Below, piece by piece: positions 6,366-61,097 of a DNA stretch of 64,000 nt. Made by a program: the position numbers and the translations under genes. This DNA is from Eledone cirrhosa (taxonomy: Eukaryota). Within the stretch, counting starts at the first letter, position 1. Each line of letters starts with the position of its first letter. The stretch covers positions 376,154,001-376,218,000 of the forward strand of contig OZ024741.1 of the NCBI GenBank assembly GCA_964016885.1, written 5' to 3'. Under the pieces are notes generated by a model. It made no database searches, was not told the origin of the DNA, and saw only the letters and a list, made by a program, of their open reading frames with translations.

Positions 6366-6611
6366 TGTATATGTATATATGTATGTGTATGTATATGTAT
6401 ATGTATGTATGTGTATGTATATGTATGTGTATATATGTATATGTATATGTGTGTATATATGTATGCATATGTATGAATGTATGTATGTGTATATATATGT
6501 ATACGTATATGTGTATGTGTATATATGTATGTGTGTATATATTTATATGTATATGTATCAGTGTATGTGTATGTATATGTGTATATGTATATATATATAT
6601 GTATATGTGTA

Positions 6612-6674
<63 letters not shown>

Positions 6675-6763
6675 ATGTATATATAAATATGTATATGTAT
6701 GTATATATGTATGTGTATGTATATATGTATATGTATATATATGTATATGTATGTGTATATATG
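5557..6763. repeat. Compound (TA)n/(TATG)n/(TG)n microsatellite
   Basis: Direct inspection. Confidence 0.97.
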
Positions 6764-9408
6764 TAAACACAGAGACACAGAAAACAGGTAATGACAGTAG
6801 CACAGAAATAAGGGAAGGTAATAGGATTGAAAGGAGAAGGGAGACAATGGACAGAGAAAATAACCAAGACGAACACATAGACACACAAAATAGAGTAGAT
6901 AATGACAATGAGCCAGAGGAAAGAGACAGGAGTAATAATGAGAGACTTAGAAACAAACATGAGGCTGTTTGTGGAAATAGAAATAGAAACAACACAACCA
7001 ACAATAACAATAGTACTAGTACACATAATGTAGCAGCCTGGAACTCTACTTTTTATAATCCCTCCGATAAGTCGTCCGACCTGCGACGAGTCCACGCCAC
7101 GACTATAGCTTTTAACAAAGGCTCGCAATTGCTGTCGCAGGTCGATGAACAAACAGAAGCACAATTTAGTATAGCTAGATCTAAACTTAGAAATATTATA
7201 GAACAGTATAGCAAGAAATATAATAGAATGGAGGCCCAGCAACTGGGAGAAAAATCTGCAAATGGCTTGCGTAAGCTCATGCAACGCTCGCGTAATGGAG
7301 AGATAGCATGCTTTCCAACAGACAAGTCTGGCAGAATGTCGGTTGACAGTCTGCCAAACTACATCCAGGCAATGCAACCCTACATCACTAACACAAGAGA
7401 AGTAACAGCACAAGAGCATGACGATAGAGAAAAAGCCCCCAATGCCCATATGATGATGTGGACAAATATAATGCAGCCCAACAAAAGGACTGCCAACAAC
7501 TTCCAGGCCTGGAACAATGACGTGCCAGCGTTGTTTGGGCTTCGAAAAGACCATAAAACGATCAGTGACCCTGTCACAGGACCACCAACACGGCCAGTCT
7601 GTGGAGCTAATATTGCTAGTAACTACAGACTGTCCTACTTCCTCTCCCTGATCATACGCCTCATCATTGAAATGTCCCCAGATGTATGTGACAGCACGGA
7701 GGACCTCCTCAGCAGAATCGGCGAGAGTAACCGATCTAGGGACCTAACAAACTGCATAATAGGTAGTATGGATGGTGTGTCCCTGTATCCATCTATTTAC
7801 GTGGATTTTGCTGTGGAGAAATGCGTAGAAATGATCAGTGAGAGCAATGTTGAATTCCGTGGGATTGATACCAGTGAGCTGGGACTCCTACTTAAACTTA
7901 CCTATAGTAATAATTATCTAGACACATATGACCTTAGCAACCTGTGCCCTACAAGACCAGCAAGAGGCAGACCACCTACCATTACCTCAATGGCCAAGAA
8001 AACCCACACAGATAGATGGAACGGGTGGACCAGAGCCATACGGACCCTCGAAAACCACGATGAACTAAAGAAAGTGATTGCACATGCGGTGGTGCCCAGC
8101 ATAAAATTAACCCTTAAGGAACATATGTTCAAATTGAATGAAAAAACATATGCCCAAGAGGAGGGCGCAGCCATTGGTGTTAGCATTGCAGGCGACATAG
8201 CTAACCTATTCATGGTATGGTGAGACAGTAGAATTAAACGTAAACTTAAAGAACAATTAGAAGACACCTTAACCCTGATAATGTACTCCCGCTACATCGT
8301 AGTTAAAACACCCCCACTAGAGAACAGTCAAGAATTAGAGAAAAACACAATGGAAAGCATCCAGCAAATAGCTAACTCCATCCACCAGAGTATTAGAGTT
8401 ACTATAGACTACCCAATCAAACACCCCAACCATCGATTACCTGTACTAGACACAAAGTTCTGGTTAGATACCATTAATAACAAAACACAAATCCTCCATT
8501 CCCATTATGCCAAACCCATGACTTCCAAATATCTGATCCACCGAAACTCAGCTGTTTCGGACCATACCAAAATCAACATACTGATTGCGGATTTGGTACG
8601 GGTGATGAGAAACGTGTCCCGCATGTGCAACCCCGAAGAACTAGAGAGACACATACAACACTTCATCCACCGTATGCAGTTCTCTGGTTACAATCAGAGA
8701 GATAAAATCAGAGTGTATAGAGGAGCCAGAACCAAATGGTGAAAAAATGGTAAATAATGACACAAATGGGACCTGGCCCTTGTATAGGAGCAAATTTTGG
8801 AATAGAATAGAAAGAACTAGGAACAAGGCTAATAGAATAAACTCATGGTATGATAGCAATAAATATCAGAGTGTAATCTTCATCGATACAACCCCTAGAG
8901 GTGAATTAGCTTACAAATTTAGAAGGGCCCTCGATAAACATAAACTCAATATTAAGATAGTAGAAAGACCAGGTACCTCCATAAAACACTTATTAGGAAG
9001 ACATACCCTTTTCAAAGACCTCCTTGTATCGATAAGAAATGTATAATCTGTAAATTAAGCCTCCATATTAACTGTAAAACTAGAAATGTAGTATATAGTA
9101 TAAGATGTACTGAAGGACAATGTAGAGATCAAAATATAGTGTACATAGGTGAGACAGCTCGTAGTATATGGGAACGGATAAATGAACACTGGCGAGACCT
9201 TCAAGATAGTAAAGAATCATCTGTACTCTACCAACATGCTAAAATAGAACATAAGGGTAAATTAGAGAACATAGAAATAAAAATAGAATCTACACACAGA
9301 AAAGACGCAATGTTTAGACAAATCACAGAGGCAATAAACATAAATGAACTCCAACCAAAATTAAATAGAAAACGTGAGTGGACCAGCAACATCACAACTT
9401 ACAATTAA
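6764..9408 (+). pseudogene. Disrupted PLE RT / GIY-YIG ORF
   Basis: [66 protein letters not shown]...VYIGETARS..ERINEH; contains stops and frameshifts, and the catalytic YxDD is deleted (YSRY-IVV). Confidence 0.88.
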
Positions 9409-9610
9409 GGACAAAATGAAAACACACACACACATAGAACAAACAACCAACCAGTAACATGTAAATAAACAAATAAATAAACGAATATAAACACACACAG
9501 ACACCCGGATGTAACACATGCGCAAACTAAGCACACAACACACACACACAAATAAGATGGCGTAGGACAGAACAAAGGAGATGCACAAAAAACAAAGAAA
9601 ACAATCCCCA

Positions 9611-9653
9611 GTCACTGAAGAGGTTACAGAATGTGTGACGAAAGAACTTTGAC
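9611..9653 (+). ncRNA. Minimal type I hammerhead-like motif in pLTR
   Basis: GTCA/TGAC stem I; CTGAAGA plus an extra G; GTTACA/TGTGAC stem II; GAAA; very short stem III; CUU site. Confidence 0.55.
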
Positions 9654-9861
9654 AATATATAAACAACCATCTGGTTGTGGAACCAACCAACCAACCGGAA
9701 ATTTATAAATTCCTAAATTTATAAATTTATTATAATAAATTGAAGTGAAAGCCAACTGGTACGTGTGTTTCTTATTGGCAACATGACCCTCCCAAAGTAT
9801 AACAATATCGGTTTCAACACACGTTTTCAGATAAAGAATCTTGCTAAACAAATTCAGAAAC

Positions 9862-10998: not shown

Positions 10999-11051
10999 CA
11001 GGAAAGAAGAGTGACATGGTTTGCTATACAAAAAAGGTTTTTAATCTCATT

Positions 11052-11157
11052 GCTGACAATTGTTTCTCTGAACTGGTAGGTCTAGAGATCGCTATCCGCT
11101 TATTTTCGCGTTACTCGATCGCCAATACAAAATTATAACCAGTCAGTTCATCGGAGC
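11052..11157 (-). ncRNA. Hammerhead-like motif, U4C core variant (CCGAUGA)
   Basis: GCT-CCGATGA-long stem II-GAAA-CAATTG-TC-AGC; mirror copy at 14035. Confidence 0.55.
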
Positions 11158-11981
11158 TTGCGAGAATGAAGAGAATATATAGGCATGAAAAGAATATACA
11201 GGCTACTATATGTAGTAGTAATGGCATTCAGTTAGAACAATAACAACAATATCAACAATGCTAGCAATAAATTATTTGAAATAATCACAACATCAATCTA
11301 GGTGGGAAGTATAGTATAACTACGATTTTAGCGTGTAAAACTAGCTGACACGAGGCAGATGTATAAAATTGACATGTAAAGACTGTCGTAGGGTGTATTA
11401 TATCAAGTGTAAAGATAAGCTGGTGTTTTTAAACAATGTAGGTCAGGTGGCCGCAATAGTCGGTTTTTATCTGACGGATGAAGTATTTATCACTGTAGTA
11501 GAAATTGTGTGGTCTATATTAGATGAGAGTTCTGTCTATCCTTTCCATCCTCAATAACATACATGTATAAGACAACACTAACAAAGCTAAGCAATGGGAA
11601 AGTTAATACAGAGGTTATGGAGGTATTATATATATATGTATACACATATATATACACACGCACATGCACACAAACATATACATACATATACACACACACT
11701 CATACAAATACATACATACAAAGAGAAAACATGCTGACTATAATTATAGCAAGATTAAGGTACAGTTCCGTTGTAGTAGTATTTTGAAATGTTCTTGGAT
11801 TTAGGATCAAGTGATGACAGCAGCTGAGAAGAGATAAGTTTATGGGTTGATGAGGTACTTACAGACATTAGTGTGGTATAGAACTAAGAAGGCTAGAATG
11901 TACTTAATGATTATATTTCTGTGGTGATTCGTGCAGAGTAGTGGGTATTCTAGTTGAAGGCTATGTTACGTCGGTTCGATT

Positions 11982-13805
11982 CATGGAGGTTTAAATCTTA
12001 TTAATTTAGTGGCAATTTTGTGTCTGCAGAAGATAGATCTTTCTAACTTGTTGTTAAGTAGCCTTTTTACATTTTTAAGGATATACAGTAGTTCTAGATC
12101 ACATAGCCCACAGTGGGACATACCTGTACTGTAGGTTTTAGCAGCCGACAACCTCGACCAGTTGATACTGTAACTAGTGTTGTTGTCCTTCAGTTCCCAT
12201 ATTTTTTGGCGTGCAATTTTTCATCGAGTGCCTGTGCACATACCATCTTTTTTTAAAAGAACCCGCGGTGGATCCAATGTAATGCCAGGTGGAATTGTGT
12301 GAGTTGACCGTACACATGTACACTATGCTCGAATCGAGACATCTATTCGCCAATGGGTACCTATCCGTTAGGTGACAGTTACAGTTTGAGGTGTTATTTC
12401 GTGCAGCTTCTACACTGCTGTTTAGTACTCTGCTATAAGTGGGTTGTGATTCATGCCCGTTGGGGTATTGCTGTTGCGCGCTTGTATGTGCTTGCGGTTG
12501 TGGTACTGTGATGTGTTTATGCTTATAATTTGGTGCTATGTTGCGCATAGGTGGCGCTGATACCCTAGAGATATTTCTGTGGTTGATCCTGCGTATGTGC
12601 GATTCTATATTTGCTGCCGTAGAGTATGAGAGTTTTATAGTATTTCTATTGAGTATTTTATGATATCTATGTGAAATAGGGAAGTGTTTATCTATTAGTT
12701 TAAAGAATGTAGAAGGCAGTCTGGTTTTTCAGAGGAGTTGAAGATTGGGTTGAACCGTAGGTATTTTCTTTCTCTGATTCTTCTATTGTTTCTAGGGTTT
12801 ACGTTATTAGTGTTTTGACCGTTCACTCTAGGTGCTACGTGCCTAACCCTATGTCTAGTCCAGTTACTTCTATTTTTGTGTAAGCGGCTGGTATAGTTGC
12901 TATTAGGATTGTTTACGTTGTCTTTATTCGCTATATACTGCAGTTTATCTTTATGTCCGGCCCTACGTAATGCTGCGTTATAATAGTTAGCATGTTCGTT
13001 AAAGATTTCTTGGTTTGGGGATAAGCGGGATATTCGAAGGGATATACTACGTGCTATGGATCTGATTATGGATTTGGGGTGGTTTGAGTTATAACTAATG
13101 TAGGCCAGATTTTCATTATTTTTGTGGAAAGGTTCTATTAATCCCGTATTTAGATTTAGAGTCACATCTAGAAATTTTAACCTCTTATGGTTCAGTTCGT
13201 AGGTAATACTTAGGCCTAGTTTTTTGAAGAATGTTCTAATGTTTTTTCTTAAACTTTCCATGCTCTGGTTGTTTAAGTTCTTAGCTATAAGGAGCGTGTC
13301 GTCTCTATAAATCCCTCCTTGGAGGTTACTGAATTCCTTATGTAGGTTGTGTGCTATGAATAGCCCCACGATGTCTGTGATTTGCGCAGAGTCATTTGAT
13401 CCCATTGTTATATCGGAGCTGTTTATCCTATCTCTTCTTACCCAGTAGCTATTTTCAAATTTTATGATAATCCTTCTAGCCGCTATTATTATTTCAATTT
13501 CCTCAGAAGTAAGATCGGAGTTATTTTGGGCAAATATAAGCGCTTTATCTAGAGTCGCTGGGGATATGGATGAATAGTAGTCGTCTATATCAAATTGTAT
13601 GAAGTTACACGTCTCCCTATTTTGTATTTTATTGAACCATTCAATCGCCTCGTTAGTATTACCCCATACATTGATTTCTAGTTTACCCTTTATTTGTGCG
13701 ATTACCCTATCTAGAATGTTCTTGCTAATTTTGACTATGTCTGACTTGGATGGGCATATTAATCTAATGGTAGGGTTTGTTTCAAAACTATTTTTGTGAT
13801 CCTTC
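11982..13805 (-). pseudogene. Truncated PLE RT / GIY-YIG ORF
   Basis: KDHK, FIQFDIDDYYSSI, MGSNDSAQITDIVG, GIYRDD, FLDVTL, SNHP, CNC linker, IVYMC...HYIGST..FKKRW, CGLC. Confidence 0.9.
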
Positions 13806-14034
13806 GACAGTCTTTACATGTCAATTTTATACATCTGCCTCGTATCAGCTAGTTTTATACGGTAAATCGTAGATATACTATACTTCCCACCTAGATTGAT
13901 GTTGTGATTATTTCAAATAATTTATTGCTAGCATTGTTGATATTGTTGTTATTGTTCTAACTGAATGCCATTACTACTACATATAGTAGCCTGTATATTC
14001 TTTTCATGCCTGTATATTCTCTTCATTCTCGCAA

Positions 14035-14149
14035 GCTCCGATGAACTGACTGGTTAGACTGGTAATAATTTTGTATTGGCGATCGAGTAACGCGAAAATA
14101 AGCGGATTGCGATCTCTAGACCTACCAGTTCAGAGAAACAATTGTCAGC
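14035..14149 (+). ncRNA. Hammerhead-like motif, U4C core variant
   Basis: GCT/AGC stem I; CCGATGA; CTGACTGGT/ACCAGTTCAG stem II; GAAA; palindromic ACAATTGT; GUC. Confidence 0.55.
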
Positions 14150-14375
14150 AATTATATTAAAAACCTTTTTTGTATAGCAAACCATGTCACTCTTCTTTCT
14201 TGATTTATTATTACTCCAAGTGTTTACAACATAGGAATTACAGCGTACTCACAGCATCAGTATGGAAACGCCTTGTTGAGTCAAACTTAGCCAAGCGTTG
14301 ATATCATCCACTACCCGGAGTACCATAACTGGACTACACCTAAGTGCACTGCATATAACTATTATTTGTTACCCC

Positions 14376-15208: not shown

Positions 15209-15566
15209 AGATCAAAAGATGGTTAAAGGAGTTCCATATATTTTATTATGCGCATTTCAAAAACAAACATAATCAAGCAATAATATTTGTGTTTTCATCA
15301 GATAAAACAGGAGAACATGATATGAAGGCTAAAAAACACTTGTTGATAGTGCAGTTTTAAATCAACATATGAAAAGTGGTTTTAGATTGATGTGTGATAT
15401 TGGGAAAAATATTTTATTTAGAGAGGGGGGGGGGGGGGGATATATGGAACTCCTTTAACCATCTTTTGATCTTATATTATGCATACTCCAGTCCCACAAC
15501 CTGTAGAGTGCTTCTTATCCGATATCTGCATTGCTTTATTGTACTACAATAAAACTCACCTCCTAC

Positions 15567-17908: not shown

Positions 17909-18193
17909 ACCTTCCGAAACCCGGCCCGGCGTCACGCCACTACACTTTCGGGCCACATATGGGACCTCAAGGACAACAACATCACCTATGATCTCACTTG
18001 GAGATTACTGTCCAGAGCCAATTCTTACACGGGAGGACGCCGTCCGTGCAATTTATGCTCGGAGGAAACTTTAGAAATGCTGTTTTCGACGGACCAACTC
18101 CTAAACAAGAAAGATGAACTGGTTACTGCATGTAAACATAGATTGCGTAGGACTTACCTCGCCCTCAAACCCCATAATGACCCGGGGGGGTAG
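17909..18193 (+). pseudogene. C-terminal part of PLE GIY-YIG endonuclease
   Basis: Translates TFRNPARRHATTLSGHIWDLKDNNITYDLTWRLLSRANSYTGGRRPCNLCSEE...LLNKK..L...CKH, homologous to the 2021-2317 protein. Confidence 0.85.
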
Positions 18194-19301: not shown

Positions 19302-19395
19302 ACCCCTTGAGAAGATCGGCTATTTAAATACCAGGATAAATTTTCATTTAGTCCAGAATTAGCCGTCGAAACGGCTTGAGCTCAGCTGTCGGGGT
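19302..19395 (+). ncRNA. Type I hammerhead, U3-A8 variant
   Basis: ACCCC/GGGGT stem I; TTGAGAA; GA(T)CGGCTA/TAGCCGTC stem II; GAAA; CGGCT-TGAGCTC-AGCTG stem III; GUC. Confidence 0.8.
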
Positions 19396-21086: not shown

Positions 21087-22808
21087 TATAAGATCAAAAG
21101 ATGGTTAAAGGAGTTCAATATATTTTATTATGCGCATTTCAAAAACAAACATCATCAAACAATAATATTTGTGTTTTCATCAGATAAAACAGGAGAACAT
21201 GATATGAAGGCTAAAAAAACACTTGTTGATAGTGCAGTTTTAAATCAACATATGAAAAGTGGTTTTAGATTGATGTGTGATATTGGGAAAAATATTTTAT
21301 TTAGAGAGGGGGGGAGAGAAAAGGATGAAAAGGGAAGGAGATGAGAGGGAGAGATGGGTGATAGAGAGAAAGAGATAGTTTTTATAACTGAGAGGTGATA
21401 TATTTTATATAGAGGGGTTGAAAACCGTTGGAAGATACTGTATAAATTAAAAATTTTGAAAATTAACGAAGGGAGGATATGTGCGAGGAAAAATATATTA
21501 TATTTAGGGAGGGGGGGGGTGGAAAGGATGAAAAAAAGGGGAGGAGATGAGAGTGAAGGTGGAAAGGGAGAGATGGGTGATAGAGAGAAAGAGATAGTTT
21601 TTATAACTGAGAAAAAGATATAATGTTTTAATATAGAGAGGTTGGGAACCGTTGGAAGATAATGTATAAATTAAAGGAATTTGAAAATTAACGAAGGGAA
21701 ATTATGTATGGAGATAGAGAGAAAAAAATAACGAAGGGAAATTATGTATGGAGATAGAGAGAAAAAAATAATAATTGTGGGTGAATATTCTAACGTCAAA
21801 AGAAGAAATGTAGGAATTTTAAAATTAGCAAAGAGAAAAAGTTTATGTGTAGAAGGATTTGAGAAAAATAATGTGAAGTTAAAGTTTGTATATTGAATTC
21901 ATATGTATTAATAATGAGTTCGTTGATGGGGAGAAAAAAATAATAATAAATTAAGGATGAAATTGAGATTAAAAAGATTTATGATAGAGAGAAAAAATAA
22001 TAATGATTGCGGATGAATACTCAAAATGTCAAAAACAAATGTTATTGTTTTACGAGGAGATAGAATGAGGGTGATGAGTAAACGGGTATTATAGAGTGTA
22101 TAATGCCCTTTAAAGTAAGGTAGATGGGTATATTTTAAAGAATATATGAGTATATATTAAAAAAAATATATAATAATAAATTAAGGATGAAATTGAGATT
22201 AAAAAGATTTATGATAGAGGGAAAAAAAAAAAATAATAATGATTGCGGATGAATATTCAAAATGTCAAAAACAAATGTTATTGTTTTACGAGAAGATAGG
22301 ATGAGGGTAATGAGTAAACGAGTATTATAGAGTGTATAATGCCCTTTAAAGTAAGGTAGATGGGTATATTTTAAAGAGGTGTATGTATATGTGCCTTTGA
22401 GAAAAGATTCTAAATTGATAAAGAATTGAATATTAACTGTATACTTTGTGAAAAGTTCTATGGAATTTATGCAGGCAGATGGAAAACAAATCCGAGCGTC
22501 TATTTATTATGGATTCTAGGTTAGAGATAATGGTAAATTTTTCATTTAGGCAGAGATTACAGATTTTAGATAGAGAGCTGTTCAAGTACGAGGATGCAGA
22601 AGAAATCTTTTTCCAAAAGATGTTATATTTAATGTTTTTGTCTTTTAAGGACCATATGAGTTCTGAGAGAGCAGTGTTAGTTCTTTTAAGTTTGTATTTG
22701 AAAGATGAATGATGATTATAGAGACGAGCTTTAAAAGAGGTGGAAGTGGAGCCAAAATAGGTGAAGGAATTGGTGCTAGTTATAATTTTACATTCATAAA
22801 TTATATAT
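21087..22808 (-). mobile_element. Nested 5'-truncated PLE (EN, 3' UTR, pLTR)
   Basis: Minus strand about 22434-22805 reads [46 protein letters not shown]; internal ~235-bp duplication (about 21940 and 22172). Confidence 0.85.
21123..21189 (-). ncRNA. Type I hammerhead ribozyme
   Basis: Same motif as 15241-15307: CTGATGA, GAAA, palindromic ATGCGCAT, 6-bp stem I. Confidence 0.78.
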
Positions 22809-29237: not shown

Positions 29238-29743
29238 TCGGATTGGCAGTATCGGTAGAGCGTCGGACACTACGCTTTTTGGCATAGAGTTATGGCCCTT
29301 CACATTCTGAATTCAAATCCCACCGACGTTAGTTTTACCTTGTGCCTAAAATATAAACAATTATTACGGGGTCGATAAAATAAAGTACCAGTAATGTACT
29401 GGGATAATTGCTGGCCTTGTGCCAAAAAGTAGAAACAATTATTACGGGGTCGATGAATTGGCAGTATCGGTAGAGGGTTGGACGCCATGCTTTCTAGCAT
29501 AGTTACGTCCCTTTACAGTCTGAGTTCAAATCCCGCCGAGGTTAACTTTGCCTTTCATCCTTACGGGGTCTATAAAATAAAGTACCAGTAATCTACTGGT
29601 TAATTGCTGGCCTTGTGCCTAAAGTAGAAACAATTATCACGGGATCGATAAAATAAAGAACCAGTAATGCACTGGTGTTGATTTAATCGACTTTCCCCAC
29701 TTCCTTAATTGCTGGCCTTGTGCCTATAGTAGAAATGATTATT
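29238..29743 (+). mobile_element. Cluster of tRNA-derived SINEs (MetaSINE/OR-like)
   Basis: A-box-like TGGCAGTATCGG, B-box GAGTTCAAATCC, central gcctttcatccttacggggtcgataaaataaagtaccag, tail ggccttgtgcc...agaaacaattatt. Confidence 0.85.
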
Positions 29744-31627: not shown

Positions 31628-32261
31628 AAGGAAAATATCGCCCTACATGGCTGAATACAATAAATGTAATCTGAGTTTTTCGAATATTAATAATCGTTTC
31701 TACTTTTGGCACAAGGCCAGCAATTACCCGGTACATTACTGGTACTTTATTTTATCGACCCCGTAAGGATGAAAGGCAAAGTTAACCATGGCGGGATTTG
31801 AACTCAGACCATAAAGGGCTGTAACTCTTTGCTGCAAAGCATGGCGTCCGACCCACTACATTCGATTCGTTTGCAATTTCGATTCGTTTGCAATTATGCA
31901 AACAAGCCTCAATTTTATAACCATGTCATTAGAATGAACACTTCATTCTTGCTCTTGTGTTGGCATGTGAACAGAACTGCAGACACAAATGTTTCTGGGT
32001 ATCACCCTTCATCAGTACAGGTCACTCTTCACCTGCCAAACTGTCAGAGCTAGTGAAAATATATGCTATTTTCAAAAAAAAACACAGTGACTGATCGGCC
32101 TGATTTGCATATTAGCAGGCTGGCTGATCAGCTGTTCATATGCCAACACAAGAGCAAGAATGAAGTGTTCGTTCTAGTGACATGGCTATAAAATTTAGGG
32201 TTGTTTGCATAATTGCAAACGAATCGAATATTATCATTAATATTCGAAAAGCTCAGATTAC

Positions 32262-32337: not shown

Positions 32338-32339
<2 letters not shown>

Positions 32340-32522
32340 CGAAAGAAATGTGGTAAGGAACCAGGTGGACCATAACGCATCAAAGTACTCAATACTTAGG
32401 GTAGTAGAGTGGGTAATAGGAACAAGTAAGACCCCGACGGCTGAGCTCAAGCCGTTTCGACGGCTGATTCTGGAATTAGCCGTCGAAACGGCTTGAGCTC
32501 AGCCGTCGGGGTCTTACTTGTT

Positions 32523-33235: not shown

Positions 33236-33432
33236 AGGAAACGTTCAAGACGCCGACGGCAGAGCTCAATCCGTTTCGACGGCTATTTCTGAGTCCAGAA
33301 ATAGCCGTCGAAATGGCTTGAGCTCTGCCGCCGGAGTCTTGAACATTTTCCTATTACCCACTCTACTACCCTAAGTATGGAGTACTCTGGTGCGTTATGG
33401 TCCACCTGGTTCCTTACCACACTTCCTTCGTT
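33236..33432. mobile_element. Short fold-back of the 17352-19408 family pLTR end
   Basis: Arms about 33236-33290 and 33297-33353 plus tail. Confidence 0.8.
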
Positions 33433-33637: not shown

Positions 33638-33694
33638 TTTTATCTGACGAAAGCGTACTAAAATATTAGTACCCTTGAAATACGTATAATAAAA
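33638..33694 (+). ncRNA. Type I hammerhead ribozyme within fold-back 33443-33752
   Basis: TTTTAT/ATAAAA; CTGACGA; AAG..GTACTAA/TTAGTAC..CTT; GAAA; palindromic ATACGTAT; AUA. Confidence 0.83.
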
Positions 33695-34160: not shown

Positions 34161-34741
34161 ATCGTTTCTGAATTTGTTTAGCAAGATTCTTTATCTGAAA
34201 ACGTGCGTTGAAACCGATATTGTTATGCTTTGGGAGGGTCATGTTGCCAATAAGAAACACACGCACCAGTTGCTTTCACTTCAATTTATTATAAATTAAT
34301 TTTATAAATTTAGGAATTTATAAATTTCCGGTTAGTTGGTTGGCTGGTTCCACAACCAGACGATTGTTCATATATTGTCAAAGTTCTTTCGTCACACATT
34401 CTGTGACCTCTTCAATGACGTGGATTCTTTTCTTTGTTTTTGTGCCTCTTCTTTGTTCTGTCCTACACCATCTTGATGGCCTACGCCATCTTGATGGCAT
34501 AGGACAGAACAAAGGAGAGGGACAAAAACAAAGAAACGAATCTCCAGTCACTAAAGAGGTCACAGAATGTGTGACGAAAGAACTTTGACAATATATGAAC
34601 AATCGTCTGGTTGTGGAACCAGCCAACCAACCAACCGGAAATTTATAAATTCATAAATTTATAAATTTAATTTATAATAAATTGAAGTGAAATCAACTGG
34701 TGCGTGTATTTCTTATTGGCAACATGACCCTCCCAAAGCAT

Positions 34742-35851: not shown

Positions 35852-36353
35852 GTGTAAGAGGAAATGTAGAATGAGACGTTGAGGGTGTAGAGAAACGTAG
35901 GAAAGATGTAAAAATTAATAACAGGAGATAGTATTACCTTGGAAGTGATTTAATTGTCCCTATATTTCGGATTTCGCATCCATCAACTTGGGGCTCCGAG
36001 AGGAAAAAGCTTTTAGTCGACTAAATGCTTATTCCCCTCGCAAAACCCCCTGTTGATGGATGCGAAATCCGAAATATAGGGACAATTAAATCACTTCCAA
36101 GGTAACTCTATCTCGTGTTATTATTTTATCCCGCCGAGGTTGACCTTGCCTTTCATCCTTACGGGGTCGATAAAATAAAGTACCAGTAATGCACTGGGTA
36201 TTGCTGGCCTTGTGCCTAAAGTAGAGACAGTTATTATTTTTACACGTTTCCTACGTCCCTCTGCACACTCTACGTCTCATTCTATATTTCCTATTACACC
36301 CTTCTCTCATCACCACCAGATTTAGTTACCCGGAGGCTTCCAGAACGACCAAT
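35691..36353. mobile_element. Fold-back element with an HHR-like motif (36047-36081, +) and a SINE inserted at 36128-36237
   Basis: 35917-35987 is inverted at 36052-36125 and the outer arms also match; CCC-CTGTTGA-TGGA..TCC-GAAA-TATA-GGG. Confidence 0.7.
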
Positions 36354-37560: not shown

Positions 37561-38870
37561 TTCTTCTTCTTCTTCTTCTTCTTCTTCTTCTTCTTCTTCT
37601 TGAGAGGATCGTGTCCTCAAACATTCCTTTCAGCGGGTCCTGTCAGAAGCAACCGTCTTTAACTGAACAGGCTGGATACCCAAGCGAGACCAGTCAAGCT
37701 CTTGGATATTATCCAATCACCTCACTCTGGGTCTACCCCTGGGTTTGCTGCCGGTTGGTTTAGCCTGTAAAATCTGTCCAGTGATTCTTTCCTGAGACGT
37801 TCAGGACGCATGCCCATAGTATAGGAGCTGTGATCTATCAATTCGGAGAAGTAGCGGCTCTACCTGGTGCGGCGCTGCGCTCTGATCTCCGAGCTGCGTA
37901 CTCTAACGAGTAACGTTACGCCAAAGTCCATTCGGAGTAAACACATCCCGGCCGCTTCTATTCTCGATCGTATTCCTTTGGTCAACACCCAAGGTTCATG
38001 ACCTTAGGTAAGGGTTGGCAGCAATACCGAATTGAAGATAGCGAGTTTCGCTTTTACGCCTACCCGCTTCTTCTGATTATTGAATGCTGAAGCTTGCGCA
38101 TTACTGCACCAGCTCCTGCAATTCTCTCACTTAATTCAGCCTCCTGCCCTCCATCACTCGTGAACATGACCCCGAGATACGTAACCCTCTCTTCCTGCTT
38201 CAATGGAACTTCCTTAAGAGGACGAGTGTCGCAGTTTTCGTCGCACTGATTTTCTTTCCAGCTATGTAGCACTCGGCATCAAACCTATCGAGTGCACATT
38301 GGTGGTCACTTCCTATTAAGTTAAGTAATTCCAGCAGACTGATTTTACACTCACCAGTCATGATACCATTTCCAACCCAGCTGTGCATGTCAATCCTGTT
38401 TCTCTAAATAATGGTTTCTTATATAGGCACAAGGCCAGCAATTTTGGGGGTGCGGAAAGTCGATTAAAACGACCCCAGTACATTACTGGTACTTTATTTT
38501 ATCGACCCCGTAAGGATGAAAGGCAAAGTTAACCTCGGAGGGATTTGAACTCAGATCATAAAGGGCCGTAACTCTATGCTGCAAAGATAATGAACAGGAG
38601 AGATGACAGTACGCAGTCGTGGTGGAGTCCGACTCCTACATTGAATGGTTTCGATGTATCACCATTTACCCGAACGCAAATACTTGGGCATTCGTATAGA
38701 GACAATATGGCAGCAAGAAGCTAACCATCGATCCCATAGTCCTGCAGAAACTTCCAAGGCAGATCGCGAGGAACATGGTTATACGCATTTCGTTCTTGGC
38801 AATACTCCTCTGATTTCTCGAAGACCTGTCACAGCGTGAATATTTAGTCGGCTGTGCTGCGTCCGCAGTG
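37561..38870 (-). mobile_element. Degenerate RTE-clade LINE 3' portion with (AAG)n tail, interrupted by a SINE
   Basis: QCALDRF..EC...G.KIS..KT, VTYLGVMFTSDG.Q.AE...RI..A.AVM, LPTLT.GHE.WV motifs. Confidence 0.78.
38408..38585 (-). mobile_element. tRNA-derived SINE
   Basis: Same consensus as 29455. Confidence 0.85.
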
Positions 38871-43210: not shown

Positions 43211-43951
43211 TACGTAGATACGTATATGTGTACAGGCGTACAGTAGTATGTATATATATACATACATGCACACATATATATATATGTACGTATGGGTTTA
43301 CCGAACATTTATTATAATGTTGGTTTGTTTGTTACAAACAAACGAACATTATAATAAATGTTCGGTAAACACATACGTACACATATATATATATGTGTGC
43401 ATGTATGTATATATATACACATATTACTGTACGTCTGTACACGTATATGTATGTACGTATAAATACTTATATTTAGGTATCAGCCGTACTAAGAGTGAGA
43501 AATGAAATTTCGTTTCATTCTTTTCCATTTATCGTTTTCGGTGCGCCCGGCCGACTAACTCACTGGATATGCAAATTAGGCTGCTCAGCCGTTAATATGC
43601 ATAGGGAAAGTATATACTTTCAAACGTTCAATCATCTGACAGAAAGGTATACGATGCTGACGATAGCTAATAAGCTTGAAACTAGTACATCGTTCCTGTG
43701 TCAGTGTTGAACAAAAGGGCGACGATGGTTGCCGAGCACTGTACGGCGTAATTCGGGCTGTTTGTTTACAAACAATCCGAACATTATAATAAATGTTCGG
43801 TAAACCCATACGTACATATACATATGTGTGTATGTATGTATATATATATACATACTACTGTACGTCTGTACACATATATGTATGTACGTATAAATACTTA
43901 TATTTAGGTATCAGCCGTACTAAGTGTGAGAAATGAAATTTCGTTTCAATC

Positions 43952-43957
<6 letters not shown>
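43211..43957 (+). mobile_element. Retrozyme-like 435-nt unit, ~1.4x tandem with 5' inverted arm
   Basis: gaacattataataaatgttcggtaaac at 43344 and 43779; 43211-43330 is inverted; one HHR. Confidence 0.8.
43651..43693 (+). ncRNA. Minimal type I hammerhead ribozyme, canonical core
   Basis: ACGATG/CATCGT; CTGACGA; AGCT(AATA)AGCT; GAAA; palindromic ACTAGT; GUA. Confidence 0.9.
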
Positions 43958-43999
<42 letters not shown>

Positions 44000-45686: not shown

Positions 45687-45950
45687 TTGCTTTTTTCCGT
45701 TTATTGCCAGGGAACGTCTCCAAGAACCAAAGTATCGTCTTCCTGTTTTCCTTCGGTTGTAACGTTTTTCGAAATATTTACTTCTGCGTTCACAGATTGA
45801 CTTTTTTAGTTTCAGAAGATCCCGTTAAGAGTGAAAGCAGCGATTCTTTGCTTAAACTTTAATCCGTTATTTTAATAAATATTTGCTCTACGGTTGTTAT
45901 CTATTTGATATATATTTATCTTTATCGAGCGTCTTCAATTTTATTATTAT

Positions 45951-46551: not shown

Positions 46552-46879
46552 CACACACACGTATATATATATATATTGTCATATTTGGGGAGGGTCATAT
46601 TGTTATAATATTGCCAGAAATAATAATAAAACACATTCACTCTGGTTTGGTTTAGTTTTCGCTTCTGTATCATTTATATCTCCATAGTTAATTTATCTGG
46701 CAATCAAAGATATCATTGATTGACCTAAAAATACAGATATAATTATATATATATACAGTATATTAAAGTCCTTTCGTCACACATTTTAGACATCATCAGT
46801 GGTATTGTTATGTTTCCTCTCGTAAATTGTAATGTCTACGTCATTTTTATTTAATGTTTTATTAAATATATATATATAT

Positions 46880-48095
46880 ACAATAATGAGAGGTACACAA
46901 ACAGATATATGTGTATACAGATATATGTGTATACATATACATGCATACATTTTTCACAAGTATGTGAGATTGTGTGTTGTCAACCTTAACCAGTTTTTCT
47001 CTATGACAATGAGAGACAAGATAATCGGAATAATTAAATCAGAGCTATGTAATACGTTATAAAGTAAGAAAAAATATTAGACATAAATAAATACCTATTT
47101 TTTCTCCAAATTCCCGACTGTACAGTTTCGTGGCTACTATGCAAAAATCCTATATCATAGAGATGTAACATGTTTGTGAGGTTTGCCGACATAACAAGTG
47201 AATACCTCATGTAAAAATTTCAAAACAGGTCTGCTTCGCGCGAAAGAATCTCGAGAAAGCGGAGGGAGGCCCTATCACGTGATACAGTGGTCAAGAAATG
47301 GGGCTAAATCCCTTGTAGCAAAGAAAAATATCACAGAAGGCAGAGGGGATATTAATACAATGCAGAGGCTACAGAAGGAGGGGGTGTAAGGAAGACTGGA
47401 AGTGAATATAGTATTAGCTTGAAAGCAGTCACTATACTTCCGTGGTTACTCTACCGTGAGGGAGTTATAGACAATAATGAGAGGTACACAGATATATGTG
47501 TATACATACATATACATGCATATATACACATACATTTTTCACAAGTATATGAGATTGTGAGTTGTCAACCTTAACCAGTGTTGCTCTATAACTATGAGAA
47601 CAAGATAATCGGAATAATTAAATTGACTCCATATCAGAGCTATGCAATGTATTATAAAGAAAGAAGAAATATTAGACATGAATAAATACCCATTTAGAGT
47701 AACCACGGAAGTATAGTGACTGCATTCAAGCTAATACTATATACACTTCCCGTCTTCCTTACCCACCCTTCTGTAGCCTCTGCATTGTATTAATATCCCC
47801 TCCGCCTTCTGTGATATTTTTCATTGCTACAAGGGATTTAGCCTCATTTTTTTACCACTGTATCACGTGATAGGGTCTCCCTCCGCTTTCTCGAGATTCT
47901 TTCACGCGATGCAGACCTGTTTTGAAATTTTTCCATGAGGTATTCTCTTGATAAGTCGGCAAACCTCACAAACATGTTACATCTCTATGATATACGATTT
48001 TTGCATAGTAGGAACGAAACTGTACAGTCGGGAATTTGAAGAAAAAATGGGTATTTATTTATGTCTAATATTTCTTCTTACTTTATAATGTATTA
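46880..48095. mobile_element. Retrozyme-like ~591-nt unit, ~1.4x tandem then inverted
   Basis: acaataatgagaggtacaca at 46880 and 47471; 47696-48095 is the reverse complement of about 47050-47453. Confidence 0.8.
47942..48035 (+). ncRNA. Type I hammerhead, U3-A8 variant (degenerate mirror at 47110-47203)
   Basis: ATTCTC/GGGAAT; TTGATAA; long stem II; GAAA; palindromic ACTGTACAGT; GUC. Confidence 0.72.
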
Positions 48096-48098
48096 TAT

Positions 48099-48160
<62 letters not shown>

Positions 48161-50099: not shown

Positions 50100-50515
50100 A
50101 TAATGGTTTCTATTATAGGCACACGGCCAGCAACCTTGGGGGAGGGGAAACTCGATTAAATCGACCCCAGTGCATGACTGGTACTTTATTTTATCGACCC
50201 GTAAGGATGAAAGGCAAAGCTAAACTCGGTGGGATTTGAATCCAGATCATAAAGGGCCATAACTCTATGCTGCAAACATGGCGTTCGACACTCTACCAAT
50301 ACTGCCAATCCACCGCCAATTTCGAATATTAAAATTGTTTCTACTTTTGGCCCAAGGCTAGCAATTACCCAGTGTATTACTGGTACTTTATTTTATCGAC
50401 CCTGTAAGGATGAAAGGCAAAGTTAACCTCGGCGGGATTTGAACTCAGATCATAAAGGTAGGTAACTCTATGCTTCAAAGATGGTCTCCGACCTTCTACC
50501 GATGCTGCTAATCCA
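50100..50515 (-). mobile_element. Two tandem tRNA-derived SINEs
   Basis: SINE consensus twice (about 50100-50318 and 50330-50515). Confidence 0.85.
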
Positions 50516-50991
50516 CAATGATAGAGGTACAGTGTTAAGATTTTACATAGGCACCAGTGTCGTCTACCAGTGTTTATAAAGATTTGGGTATATCCTTGAA
50601 TGATTTCATGAGGAATTCAAGCGGTATGCTGGTCACTACATGACAAATGCGTTCCTCTCGTTGAGTTGGTTTTAAATTATAAACTTATTCCTTCACCAAC
50701 CCTAAAGGAAAACATCGAATGGCGTTAATTCTGGGCTTTTCGTTGGCCATTTATGTGTATCTCGACGACCCAGTCAATATCCTGGATAGTGGGCATCAAG
50801 GCACTGGCGCAAGACAGTGCGCGCAAAATGAGGAGGGGACTCATCTTTCATGCATATGAGGTCATTTATTTATGTTGTCCCAAGTGGTGATATTAACAAG
50901 AGTTATAAGTATGTGTTAAGAGGGAGTTTCTTTACACCCACACTCTATGTATGTATATATATATATACACACACATACATACACACAGACA

Positions 50992-51322: not shown

Positions 51323-51954
51323 ATGAAAGACGTAAAATAGGTACTAAGACATAACATATATATTTGCTAGCATGGGTATACATCTGTATACATATGTTGG
51401 TAGATATACTAATTCTCTATATTTATCTCCAAATTATTTGTTGAGAGAAACTTGCCAGAATTTACTGCTATGGTTCATGGTAGTAGTTAGGCTCTTGTCA
51501 TAGTACCACCCCCACTCCTCACTGATTAACCCCAGTGTCACGTGATTGATTCTTTAGAATTTGCCACTGACCAAGTAGGCAGTGAATTTTTTCAGTGCCC
51601 TGGAATTTAGTCCCCGCTAGCTTTATTCCATCCACTGAATTATTATTTTTATATGGGTTCCTAGTGTCCGCGCATTGCCTGGGAACTTAACTGAGAATAG
51701 ACTCCCTGATGACGTAAGGACTTCTCTATAGTTACATTGCGTAACTATATTTATTCCCTTAGAGAAACTAATTAGTTGGAGTGAAAATTTTAGTAAGTAA
51801 GTTGATATTTAATTTTTAAAATTTTCTTATTTTACGTCTTTCATATAATTGTTCTGCATCCCCCTGCATAGAACCACAAAGGTACTAAGACATAACATAT
51901 ATATTTGCTAGCATGGGTATACATCTGTATACATATGTTGGTAGATATACTAAT

Positions 51955-51959
<5 letters not shown>
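51323..51959 (+). mobile_element. Retrozyme-like 541-nt unit, 1.14x tandem with short inverted 5' stub
   Basis: 78-bp direct repeat at 51341 and 51882; 51322-51339 is inverted at 51828-51845. Confidence 0.78.
51701..51782 (+). ncRNA. Type I hammerhead ribozyme, canonical core
   Basis: ACTCC/GGAGT; CTGATGA; TAAGG/CCTTA plus TATAGTTAC/GTAACTATA; GAAA; palindromic ACTAATTAGT; GUU. Confidence 0.83.
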
Positions 51960-51985
<26 letters not shown>

Positions 51986-52426: not shown

Positions 52427-52742
52427 CGGTGGATTGGCAGTACCGGTAGAGAGTCGGACACCATGCTTTGCAGCATAGAGTTACGTCACTTCATAATATG
52501 AGTTCAAACCCCGCCGAGGTTATCTTTGCCTTTCATCCTTAATTATTACGGGGTCGATGAATTGGCAGTATCGGTAGAGGGTTGGACGCCATGCTTTCTA
52601 GCATAGTTACGTCCCGTTACAGTCTGAGTTCAAATCCCGCTGAGGTTAACTTTGCCTTTCATCCTTACGGGGTCGAAAAAATAAAGCACCAGTAATGCAC
52701 TGGGTAATTGCTGACCTTGTGCCAAAAGCAGAAACAATTATA
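52427..52742 (+). mobile_element. tRNA-derived SINE dimer
   Basis: Two SINE heads with the same junction as at 29437-29470. Confidence 0.82.
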
Positions 52743-55507: not shown

Positions 55508-56069
55508 ATATATATATGTGTGTGTGTGTGTGTGCCTGTGTTTATACATACATGCACACATACAGGCACATACATTTACAAATATAGAATTACACACTCT
55601 AAAATATCTGCAAACATATTCACGTACATGCATATAGTTGCACGCACACACATATGCAGTCATAGTCATATTTCTATAAAAGGCGAACGTCTGACTGTCT
55701 GTCTGTGCCTGGAAACTATGCAGATGTGTGAATTGTTCTTAAATAAGTATTTTTATTTTAATAACTCAATGTTAAAATAGAACAATAGAAGTATCAATTT
55801 TCCTATATTTTTTGCCATAAAATTATGAATTCATCTTCTTCGGAACATTCAAAACACGTATAAAACCAAAATTTATGATGTTGTTTTTTCAGAAAAAAAT
55901 ATATTTACAACCAAAATATCTTAAAACAAAGAACATTCAAAAAGCAAACAATAATCAACTCTATAGGGACACTTTATATACTACACTTGTTTATTCAGTT
56001 TATCTACTGGAATACCAGAAATTGAATTATGGTTTGCTTACGCATTTTCATAGACAAAATAATTGTCTA

Positions 56070-56235
56070 TAATTTTGGGACAAGGCCAGCAATTAACCCA
56101 GTGCATTACTAGCACTTTATTTTATCGACCCCGTAAGGATGAAAGACAAAGTTAACCTCGGCATGAATTGAACCCAGAACATAACTCTATGCTGCGAAGC
56201 ATATTGTCCGACGCTTTACCGATACTGTCAACCAC
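56070..56235 (-). mobile_element. tRNA-derived SINE
   Basis: SINE consensus. Confidence 0.82.
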
Positions 56236-56297
56236 CACCCTTTTATAGACATAATAATGTTGAAGAGGCACCATAATGAAGTGTTTGTACCGATTTC

Positions 56298-59200
56298 AAA
56301 ATTTATTCTGTTATTTTAATAAATATTTGCTCTATGGTTCTTATATATTTGATATATATTTATCCTTATCGAGCCCTCTTTGGATTTTAGTCTTCAAATT
56401 TATTATTATTACTATTTGGCTCCCTCGGTTGAGCATCTATTGACTTATATTCATCATGCAGAAACAACATCTGAATATTTCTACAAAGAACATACCCGTA
56501 CCAAGCAGGAAAACATGCCTAAAACTCCCGATACAGAAAACAGACGCGTTCATTAAAAGGTTGCGTTGGCGTGCCTTTTATTTCGATAATCAGCGAAAAG
56601 CAGACAACAAACAGGATAAATTTGGGTTTAAAACCTATAATAACCCTCCGTGTAACCAAGCATTGCTACCCTTCGAAAATGATGTCTTGCAACTCATACG
56701 GAGTATCACATTTCGGAATAGGAGCAATTCCTTCCAGCAGGACCTGAAGAATAGAATTCGTTATATTAAGGATTCTAATGCCGTGCACGTCCCCTCCGAC
56801 AAAACTGGCAACCTATATCACGTGGAGCACAGTACTTACCATCAACTACTACATACTGCTGTAACTAAGGATTACCGTAAAACTAATCGGTGCGTCATCA
56901 ATGAACTCAACGATGCTGGGTTTAAAATCACCTCTGATCTCAACATCCTGGACCGGACGAACCTCTGGACCCTATTTCTCCCCACTTTACCCTGAAGGAT
57001 CACAAATCCAATTTTCCGAACAACCCCTCTATTCGGCTTATTAACTCTACGACGTCCGATTTAGGTAGACTTAGTAAAAGCATTCTTGATAGAATTATAC
57101 CTGAAATTAGAAGTTTGGCCTCTCTTGCACTGTGGAACAATTCTTTCGCGGTGATTGATTGGTTCAACGGCATATGCAACAAGGAACATTGCCGTTTTAT
57201 CCAATTCGACATCAACAATTACTACTCCTCCATCACTTTACCACTTCTCCTTAGAGCTATCAATTTCGCTAACACACTCACAGTGGTTAAGGATTTCGAA
57301 GTTGATGTCATCCTCAATGCCCGTAAGTCGGTGATTAATTTCGACGACTCTATTTGGATTAAAAAATCTAATAGTCCCCCATTCGACGTGAGTATGGGCG
57401 CCAGCGATTCTGCGGAGGTTACTGATCTTATCGGCCTTTTCCTTCTTTTCTCTACCAAGAACGAATTCCCCAACGTGAGCGGTGGTTTGTACCGTGATGA
57501 TGGTCTTTTGACCATGACTAAGTGCGGCCCACGTGCTTGCGCCAGGTTCAGAAAAGAACTCAAATGGCTTCAACCTCTCTATACAGATTGAGGCCAACCT
57601 CTCCGTCGTTAATTACCTCGACGTTACCCTCAATTTATCGAATGGCTTGTATTACCCGTATAGAAAGCCGAATGATACGCTTAATTACATAAGTAAGCAT
57701 TCCAACCATCCTGCCAGCATAACCAAGAACCTGGTAAGAAACGTTTCTTTGAGGCTTTCCCGTCTATCTACTAACGAGCATATTTTCAACGACCATTCCA
57801 CATATTAAAATGAAGCTCTTGCTCCGAGTGGGTTTGTCGATAAGGTAGCATATACAGAGTACTAGAATAGACCTAGAAGAAATAGATCCCGACGCATTAT
57901 ATGGTATAACCCACCATATAATATGGAGGTGGCCACACCATTAGCTAAGATCTTTCTATCACTTATTACGATGCATTTTCCCCGTACACATAAATATAGT
58001 AACATTTTTAATAGAAATACTATTAAAATTTCTTACTCTACGACTCCTAACCTTGCACATAACATCACAGCTTCTAATTTAGCTAAACTATTTAGCCGTA
58101 GAAACACGTGCAACCCTGTAGTTAGTACTAACTGTAATTGTAGGAATCGGGTTGATTGCCCCATATCCGGGAAATACCTCTCTAGTAACATTGTCTACAA
58201 ATGTCAGGTTGAAACACCTACATAGGGTTAACCGCCAATAGTTTCAAGCAGCGTCTTTACATGCATACCCATTCTTTTCGTTACCCTCTAAGAAGGAATA
58301 TGACGTCACAGCTTATATCTGGAGTCTAAAAGACAACCACACCCAATATAAGTTTCACTGGGAGATCCTAGATAGGGCTAGATCGTATAACGGAAATAAA
58401 AGACCATATGACCTCTGCGCCGCTGAGGCCCTGGAAATACTCTACACCACAGACCCCATATTAAACAAAAAATCTGAGGCAATTTCGGCTTGTAAACATA
58501 CATTGCACAAAACCTTTCTGTATTACAGCCCCACATTATACCCTAACGGATAGTACGATCTATACGCGGATATTTTACGTCTTGATGTAGTAGCTAAGTG
58601 TATGTTATGTTTATACCATTACTTATTTGCACAGGTAAATATATATTACCTGTTTGTTTTGTGAAGGCACGTATACTTTCTCGTACGTATATTTGATTGT
58701 ATGTTATGGCGTATATTTTATATATTCTGGTACATATGCTTTTGGTTATGTGAATGCGGGAGTTTTGCGTCTGTGTGAGTATGGGGGTTCGTACGTATGT
58801 AGGGTGTGTTTACATGTGTACTTCGTGTTTTGGTTGACGTACGACTCCGAACATTTGTGTATTTACATGTAGGTATGTGTGTGCGCTTGTTATATACGTA
58901 TTTATTTATTTATATACGTTTATTTAATTTTTTGTGTACACGTACACACCAACACACATATTTATATGTGCGTGTATTTGCATACCTATGGCGAGTGTTT
59001 TCGCGTATGCTTGTGTATGTACGTATATGGATGTGTGTATGTATTTATTTAATTTCAATTACCTGTGTATTTTATTTACTTTATTCTTAACTCTGAAGCG
59101 GACAATCATTCGGTTTCCTAGTTAGAATTTTAGTCTACCACTTCAATTATACCATTTACGTGGTTTTGTCTTTGCGTGCAATTGTTCTCCACTCTCCACA

Positions 59201-59638
59201 TATGACGTATTATGTTCGTTTTTCCGTTCATTGCCAGAGAACGTCTCTATGAACCACCTAAGAGAATATTAGTCTACGACTTCTTTTATACCATAAACGT
59301 GGTTCTGTCTTTGCGTGTAATTGTTTTTCACCGCTCTAAATAATGACGTATTATATTCGTTTTTTCCCGTTCTTTGCCAGGGAACGTTTCCACGAACCAA
59401 AGTATCGTCTTCCTGTCTTCCTCCGGTTGCAACGTTTTTTTAAATATTCACTTGTGCGTCCACAGATTGACTTTGTTAGTTTCAAAAGATCCCGTTAAGG
59501 GGAAAGCAGCGATTCTTTGCTTAAACTTTAATCTGTTATTTAACAAATATTTGCTCTACGGTTCTTATATATTTGATATATATTTATCCTTATTGAGCCC
59601 TCTTTGGATTTTAGTCTTCAAATTTATTATTATTACTA
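56298..59638 (+). mobile_element. Penelope-like retroelement, family H1, near full length with direct pLTR
   Basis: 56307-56414 is repeated at 59533-59639; colinear with the reverse complement of 942-4328; ends in (TA)n. Confidence 0.93.
56456..58553 (+). pseudogene. Frameshifted PLE RT / GIY-YIG ORF
   Basis: MQKQHLNISTKNIP, RLRWRA, DKTGNLY, FDINNYYSSI, GLYRDDGL, WYNPPY, CNCRNRVDCP, IVYKC. Confidence 0.92.
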
Positions 59639-59698: not shown

Positions 59699-59755
59699 TT
59701 CTATTACATATATTTCAAGGGTACCAACATTTTGGTGGGCTTTCATCAGATAAAA
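59699..59755 (-). ncRNA. Type I hammerhead in short insert 59653-59822
   Basis: TTTTAT/ATAGAA; CTGATGA; AAG..ACCAA/TTGGT..CTT; GAAA; TATATG; GUA; related to 33638. Confidence 0.75.
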
Positions 59756-60074
59756 TGCGAAGTGTGTTTTATAAATTTTGACATAACCAAGAAAAATACC
59801 TTAACGTTTCAAGTTTACCTTATATATATATATGAAATACCAATGATGGCTGGCAAATCACTGATGAGAGACTAATTTTATAATATGTAACCCATGTGCA
59901 ACCATGCAGTTTTCCTCTTTCTTCCCATGTTTTATATATATATATATATGTGAATATAGACATAGAATATTCGAAAATACTCTGTATGTTTATAATAAAC
60001 ATTTTGAAGACCTAATCGCTATAGAATAGAATACGTCACGTATTACAATTAGATTCTCGATAAAAGCAAGGGAA

Positions 60075-60117
60075 GTAATCTACGCGTTTCATTCTTATTA
60101 GAAATCTTCAGGACTAC
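60075..60117 (-). ncRNA. Minimal type I hammerhead ribozyme
   Basis: Exact inverted copy of 60570-60612. Confidence 0.9.
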
Positions 60118-60569
60118 ATATCCAGTGCTTTTATCGAGAATGATACAGCTAGAGACTTATAGAATACTTAGCTGTGTACAGGAACTGGTTTGAAAGAGCG
60201 GTTGCCGGTCCGGCAGAAATTAGAAATTGGAATAAATGTTCTGAAATAGCGATATATATGTGAATATAGACATAGAATATTCGAAAATACTCTGTATGTT
60301 TATAATAAACATTTTGAAGACCTAATCGCTATAGAATAGAATACGTCACGTATTACAATTAGATTCTCGATAAAATGTTTATTATAAACATACAGAGTAT
60401 TTTCGAATATTCTATGTCTATATTCACATATATATCGCTATTTCAGAGCATTTATTCCAATTTCTAATTTCTGCCGGACCGGCAACCGCTCTTTCAAACC
60501 AGTTCCTGTACACAGCTAAGTATTCTATAAGTCTCTAGCTGTGTCATTCTCGATAAAAGCACTGGATAT

Positions 60570-60612
60570 GTAGTCCTGAAGATTTCTAATAAGAATGAAA
60601 CGCGTAGATTAC
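60570..60612 (+). ncRNA. Minimal type I hammerhead ribozyme, canonical core
   Basis: GTAGTC/GATTAC; CTGAAGA; TTCT(AATA)AGAA; GAAA; palindromic ACGCGT; GUA. Confidence 0.9.
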
Positions 60613-60765
60613 TTCCCTTGCTTTTATCGAGAATCTAATTGTAATACGTGACGTATTCTATTCTATAGCGATTAGGTCTTCAAAATGTTTATTATAAACA
60701 TACAGAGTATTTTCGAATATTCTATGTCTATATTCACATATATATCGCTATTTCAGAGCATTTAT

Positions 60766-61040: not shown

Positions 61041-61097
61041 TTCTATTATATATATTTCAAGGGTACCAAAATGTTGGTGCGCTTTCATCAGATAAAA
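61041..61097 (-). ncRNA. Type I hammerhead in short insert 60994-61163
   Basis: Second copy of 59699-59755; palindromic ATATATAT; AUA. Confidence 0.75.

Follow-up and report, generated by a model that had tools for sequence, protein, structure and literature searches.

Metazoan non-LTR retrozymes are described as having monomers of about 170–400 nt, with Penelope-like elements (PLEs) named as their likely mobilisers (PMC7229834). A 2026 survey gives retrozyme sizes of 51–972 bp with a mean of 650 bp in fish, reports dimers cleaving in only one of nine tested, and, chiefly in vertebrates, ties retrozymes to PLEs on the basis of co-occurrence and of pLTR similarity (bioRxiv 10.64898/2026.07.22.740005). 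PLE insertions themselves carry partial tandems, an adjacent inverted 5'-truncated copy and a tail at one end, with a bias for (TA)n; the role of hammerhead cleavage in their retrotransposition is called unclear (PMC8557442). In Schistosoma, U3 covaries with A8 across about 1,300 PLE-related hammerhead motifs, which have a palindromic stem III, act as dimers and occur as opposite-strand pairs 100–700 bp apart; copying of more than one unit from circles has been proposed (PMC4209133). An anole PLE protein cleaves and extends both strands at AT-rich DNA in vitro, where it starts at two internal RNA sites (PMC11167929). The words hammerhead, retrozyme and ribozyme are absent from the main text of PMC13282606, and a search that stopped short of most subscription papers and of unseen supplements returned no report of hammerhead-bearing non-autonomous PLE families in octopus or cephalopods.

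Here we describe an insertion built from a 591-nt unit in a TA-rich, apparently invertebrate and perhaps cephalopod genome, found in a single copy in the window (the whole 64-kb stretch of DNA analysed), which is best read as decayed, non-autonomous, PLE-mobilised and retrozyme-like. Its RNA sense is taken to be the hammerhead strand, so that the left arm is minus and the right arm plus. The insertion comprises the following features.

46866..46880, no strand: (TA)n tract seen in the sequence, left boundary and likely target
46880..47470, minus: one complete period of 591 nt, whose RNA-sense 3' end, at 46880, lies 236 nt past the predicted cut
47110..47203, minus: hammerhead copy A, core UUGUUAU, palindromic stem III at 47117–47126, predicted cut 47116/47115
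47471..47695, minus: 5'-truncated tandem stub, 0.38 period, 5' end at +16 past the cleavage site
47695..47695, no strand: head-to-head inversion junction, 1 nt common to both arms
47695..48099, plus: 405-nt inverted arm, 5'-truncated, running from 335 nt 5' of the cut to +66/+70
47942..48035, plus: hammerhead copy B, core UUGAUAA at 47948–47954, stem III at 48019–48028, predicted cut after 48029
48100..48148, no strand: short CA run, then (AT)21 tract, right boundary

Self-BLAST of 46850–48120 defines this layout. The left arm (46880–47695, minus) spans 816 nt, or 1.38 periods, and its direct repeat aligns 46875–47100 with 47466–47695 at an offset of 591 (82.7% identity over 237 columns, including 18 gap columns). 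The right arm, 47695–48099, is the reverse complement of 47046–47453, with 380 of 408 positions identical. These values bear out the preliminary description, which had given a period of about 591, about 1.4 units and a 400-bp inversion. Both RNA-sense 3' ends point outward into TA tracts, the 5' ends meet at 47695, and the inverted arm terminates in TATA-like microhomology with its flank. Relative to the predicted cleavage site, the 3' ends fall at +236 in the left arm and at +66 to +70 in the right, some 166–170 nt apart, compared with a published PLE tail of 30–40 bp. The locus presents marks of a PLE-type insertion, namely a microsatellite or AT-rich target and a partial tandem with an adjacent inverted 5'-truncated copy. 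No further insertion of the unit occurs within the window. Word shares in sequencing runs were 0.30, 0.29, 0.21 and 0.05 in four of the seven listed (one study), with none at half or above and no RNA run among those listed; these shares are given no weight as evidence.

We assign a probability of about three in four to a single retrotransposition of a protein-less element with a 591-nt unit and one PLE-type, type I hammerhead per unit, with a Penelope-like RT/GIY-YIG protein as the mobilising agent in trans. The endonuclease would nick both strands of the (TA)n tract. One nick would prime cDNA synthesis at +236 on a multimeric or circular RNA, of which 1.38 units would be copied; the other would prime at about +68, with 405 nt being copied, and the ends of the two cDNAs would then be joined head-to-head. 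Cutting in the parent family was most probably by a double hammerhead formed through the palindromic stem III, which would release monomers of about 591 nt that may circularise.

The same layout recurs in the neighbourhood, as the preliminary description had noted for other inserts. Three ORF-less hammerhead units, of 310, 431 and 541 nt, share it along with a type I motif and a palindromic stem III. The coding element at 961–4703 has this layout too, with a direct repeat (961–1076/4198–4313) followed by an inverted segment (4329–4703 = 1048–1423); here the period is 3237 nt and includes the ORF. The nearest Atlas neighbours of this element's long ORF (399 aa) are animal RT-type clusters, and several frames of the window are RT- and GIY-YIG-like. 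A Pfam search of five neighbouring proteins returned no family in four, and in the fifth GIY-YIG at 22.2 bits, below the cutoff of 22.6. From domain order, Atlas neighbours and architecture, we read the neighbouring coding elements as Penelope-like.

A U3-A8 hammerhead at 19307–19390 connects motif and protein. Its stem II domain is 54 nt long with a palindromic loop, its MFE structure is a hammerhead fold, and it lies about 1.1 kb downstream, on the same strand, of an endonuclease C-terminal remnant (17909–18193). This 94-aa remnant is 50% identical to the EN of the 961 element and has a GIY-YIG-named cluster as Atlas neighbour. The U3-A8 hammerhead type is thereby tied here to a coding PLE-like family. 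Given this recurrence, we regard a long stem II, a palindromic stem III and U3-A8 as PLE-like family traits in this genome rather than peculiarities of the 591-nt unit.

The unit itself looks non-coding. No coding remnant was found in it, the longest stop-free frame being 72 aa, and it contains no ORF with the RT and GIY-YIG domains of an autonomous PLE. In a blastx comparison with 354 window frames, the best E value among the matches listed was 0.026, to a microsatellite frame, and an RT frame scored 0.5; lacking a credible match among those listed, a coding origin was rejected. The preliminary description had considered that the unit might extend into a coding element, and this same comparison leaves no coding trace in the 591 nt visible. 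A Pol III SINE carrying a hammerhead was likewise rejected, with no ARAGORN match in the unit and no match to A/B box patterns; ARAGORN finds no tRNA gene anywhere in the 64-kb window.

These observations bear on an unlikely alternative, in which an autonomous PLE with a 591-nt duplication inside its long 3' UTR/pLTR left the insertion as its 5'-truncated 3' end. In the window, coding PLE-like elements do have 3' UTRs of 1–1.2 kb; one such UTR contains an internal tandem of about 140 nt (1174–1308/1315–1447), and one contains a hammerhead of the same U3-A8, long-stem-II type as the 591-nt unit. Moreover, PLE copies are mostly 5'-truncated in published accounts (PMC8557442; bioRxiv 10.64898/2026.07.22.740005). 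However, the tandem period starts over at precisely the point where the element has its 3' terminus (46875 = 47466), as in a whole-element tandem, the equivalent period of a coding element is the 3237-nt one that takes in its ORF, and the 591-nt unit lacks any such coding trace.

The hammerhead motif occurs once per arm, on opposite strands. Both copies have U3 and A8, a palindromic stem III and GUC, which indicates that the U3-A8 pair was present in the template of the insertion. Copy B (47948–48029, plus) has the core UUGAUAA, a 6-bp stem I and a stem III that is a perfect palindrome, ACUGUACAGU, over its full 10 nt. Copy A (tandem arm, minus) reads UUGUUAU, with A6 and A9 changed; its stem I has a mismatch and its stem II is partly paired at the base. 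What we call stem II is a weakly folding 61-nt domain, with an energy of −7.8 kcal/mol in copy A and −0.6 kcal/mol in copy B, where the base is broken and the closing pair had to be forced. Neither MFE fold is a hammerhead (z of +1.4 and +1.2). Of the motif first described, U3-A8, the palindrome and GUC hold in both copies and the core UUGAUAA only in the right one; the long stem II is confirmed as a 61-nt domain, not as a stable helix.

Neither copy at this locus looks likely to be active, judging from cores and predicted folds. With one damaged motif on each strand, the locus presumably cannot release a monomer by two cuts. The dimer co-fold of copy B nevertheless adopts a double-hammerhead topology at −32.6 kcal/mol, versus −22.8 kcal/mol for two monomers, with an intermolecular stem III, a swapped stem I and a stem II still unclosed. 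PLE hammerhead variants reportedly cleave as dimers, in the words of one study's title, and that study may describe the U3-A8 variant.

The description of the unit as retrozyme-like survives as a working likeness. The unit has a type I motif once per period (damaged in both copies), a head-to-tail repeat of 1.38 periods, no protein coding in the 591 nt visible and a GC content of 36.9%, below 45–50%. It departs from the canonical type I form, which has C3-G8, a 4-bp helix II and loop-loop contacts (PMC7229834/PMC4209133), and in place of two complete hammerheads in tandem the locus has one per strand, both damaged. On these two grounds we class the locus as a PLE-type hammerhead insertion, decayed and non-autonomous.

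We assessed the motif against a background of 30 block-wise dinucleotide shuffles, using a descriptor that requires a covarying 3-8 pair. The 64-kb window holds nine matches, compared with a mean of 0.27 in the shuffles (n = 30). Six of the nine, 47948–48029 among them, combine a stem I of at least 6 with a stem III of at least 4, a combination seen in none of the 30 shuffles. A stricter scan missed the 591-nt motif because its stem II has fewer than four contiguous pairs, and a looser scan missed the 431- and 541-nt motifs, which were found by eye and then folded. An Rfam scan of the whole window returned nothing at gathering score, and the 34 weak matches in the 591-nt region were mostly AT-repeat, with no hammerhead. 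The exact hammerhead motifs of the unit gave no matches in metagenome or viral contigs, collections not expected to hold animal repeats. As for self-pairing, the circular fold z was −2.8 for the 591-nt unit (a decayed copy; −1.0 without its low-complexity stretch, −2.4 for the right arm), −3.9 for the 310-nt unit, −11.2 for the 431-nt unit and −6.6 for the 541-nt unit.

It is scarcely credible that the motif matches a hammerhead by chance, or that it had already lost its function in the parent element. Such a reading would draw on the lack of an Rfam match, on MFE folds that are not hammerheads and on a stem II that is weak in both copies. Against it, a motif this strict is absent from the 30 shuffles, U3 and A8 are kept in both copies, and the motif lies near the 3' end, with the strand sense that hammerheads have in the neighbouring families. 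As a dimer it folds into a hammerhead shape, and the monomers of the young 310- and 431-nt units are not hammerhead folds either (gaps of 6.7 and 6.8 kcal/mol).

Sequence comparison of the 591-nt unit with four PLE-like 3' UTR/pLTR regions and the three other units revealed no clear similarity, so no partner element was identified for it. The best scores were to the 541-nt unit (reached by 1 of 100 shuffles) and the 961-element UTR (reached by 2 of 100), both uncorrected for seven tests. Kinship to the 3' UTR of the 19307 element beyond the motif was rejected, with 21 of 100 shuffles scoring equally well. MAFFT left the 591 and 19307 hammerheads out of register, so that their likeness is one seen by eye only.

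The window holds further elements. The 541-nt unit (51324–51960), 3 kb from the 591-nt insertion, spans 1.14 periods on the plus strand with a 15-nt inverted stub and no difference in 77 positions between tandem copies; its hammerhead has the core CUGAUGA, a 51-nt stem II domain, the palindrome ACUAAUUAGU and a predicted cut before 51778. Young and intact-looking, it is a better experimental candidate than the 591-nt unit. The 431-nt unit (43288–43960) has about 1.5 periods on the plus strand, a short inversion and a hammerhead with core CUGACGA, palindrome ACUAGU and a predicted cut before 43688, and each arm of the 310-nt unit (59942–60759) is longer than one period. An element with RT and C-terminal endonuclease occurs as two near-full-length copies, 961–4703 and 56298–59619 (91% identical); another copy, at 45790–45900, carries a motif with the core CAGAAGA (A at position 4), a putative hammerhead that a constrained fold did not recover cleanly. 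The segment 17353–19410 is the 3' end of a coding PLE-like element, with a UTR of about 1.1 kb and a 444-nt perfect inverted arm, and short palindromic copies of it lie at 32338–32516 and 33236–33430, with junctions inside stem II.

Further coding elements and motifs complete this inventory. A coding PLE-like element at 11004–14197 has an inverted pLTR and a putative hammerhead in which the core is CCGAUGA (C at position 4), with a stem II domain of 81–90 nt and the palindrome ACAAUUGU. An RT and GIY-YIG element at 6560–9855 (plus) has a minimal-type hammerhead near 9600–9650, and two of its 3' ends stand head-to-head at 34170–34736. Five more type I motifs with C3-G8 and a palindromic stem III, at 15247–15301, 21129–21183, 33644–33688, 59705–59749 and 61047–61091, fall in two repeat families. 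An abundant repeat family of about 200 nt, often in partial tandems with a period of 126–215 nt, occurs at 29240–29743, 31680–31860, 36128–36240, 38408–38588, 50100–50516, 52427–52741 and 56058–56239; a loose scan of four of its loci found no hammerhead.

The inverted arms of the 591-nt insertion differ by 25 substitutions in 405 aligned nt (6.2%), those of the 310-nt insert by 2 in 359 (0.6%; Fisher p = 1.3e-5). If these differences arose after insertion, the 591-nt insertion is the older, in agreement with the preliminary description, which had called its arms diverged and older than the 310-nt insert. Its apparent greater age may instead be an effect of template RNAs that were already heterogeneous. 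The tandem copies differ at 14 of 150 positions outside the low-complexity stretch, not significantly different from the inverted arms (p = 0.20), which fits one insertion event. The locus is probably a dead fossil that has decayed by about 3% per arm since insertion and retains one damaged hammerhead per strand.

We also considered a DNA-level origin, in which replication template switching near TA tracts would have duplicated a single old PLE remnant locally and inverted it by fold-back, without any RNA multimer or circle taking part. The AT-rich, microsatellite-flanked context, the 1-nt junction microhomology and the single locus would suit such an origin. We judge it very improbable, as polarity and layout recur in unrelated families of the window, some with arms 99–100% identical. 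Moreover, a 55-nt segment present three times in the insertion shows pairwise differences of 8, 4 and 6 nt, so that no pair looks recently copied.

One oddity concerns the 5' ends of the tandem arms. In the 591-nt unit, as in the 310-nt unit, the tandem arm has its 5' end at +16 past the predicted cut, counting junction microhomology of 1 nt and 4 nt, respectively, into the arm. This end lies at about +72 in the 431-nt unit and about +103 in the 541-nt unit, and each of the four long arms stops short of a second hammerhead. A post hoc calculation puts the probability that two or more of four arms end within 20 nt at about 0.055. A strict start of templates at the cleavage site was rejected: the coding element's stub begins 33 nt upstream of its putative site. 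Several short insertions in the window have junctions inside a hammerhead, a pattern that fits RT stalling at the fold equally well. It is a doubtful proposal that insertions of this type preserve, as fossils, the way in which PLE proteins copy hammerhead RNAs. If true, it would contrast with cleavage being dispensable for the anole PLE in vitro (PMC11167929), and it could be counted from sequence alone in a host genome with many families of 300–600 nt.

Taken alone, the 591-nt locus is one dead copy, and its value is comparative. Four ORF-less hammerhead units with a PLE insertion signature lie beside coding elements with the same signature in an apparently invertebrate genome, and this signature argues directly, on structural grounds, for PLE mobilisation. 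Whether hammerhead cleavage plays a part in retrotransposition could be tested cheaply from junction positions.

Compared with non-LTR retrozymes, the insertion is alike in its non-coding, low-GC repeat unit, its type I hammerhead and its co-occurrence with PLE-like elements. The preliminary description had placed its size above a range of a few hundred nt for animal retrozymes; at 591 nt it does exceed expressed monomers of about 170–400 nt (PMC7229834), but it falls within the 51–972 bp given in the 2026 survey (bioRxiv 10.64898/2026.07.22.740005) and has a local counterpart of 541 nt. It differs in a PLE-type hammerhead, with U3-A8 and a 61-nt stem II domain rather than the canonical 4-bp stem II, and in a locus of only 1.38 units.

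With EN+ PLEs it shares the partial tandem and inverted 5'-truncated copy, two alternative 3' ends and a TA-tract target, and with their pLTR hammerheads a palindromic stem III, U3-A8 and opposite-strand pairs (PMC4209133). Unlike them, the unit has no RT/EN ORF, and its 3' ends lie about 170 nt apart rather than 30–40. Its hammerhead has a 61-nt stem II domain in place of the 7–8 bp helix described for theirs, and its stem III is a full 10-nt palindrome. MRC1-like non-autonomous PLEs (Chlamys clade) are likewise ORF-less, with pLTR-like partial tandems and dependence on autonomous PLEs; their 3' ends are similar to those of the partner and most of them have no hammerhead (PMC8557442), whereas no partner was identified for the 591-nt unit. 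The supposedly unusual features of this insertion have all been described before.
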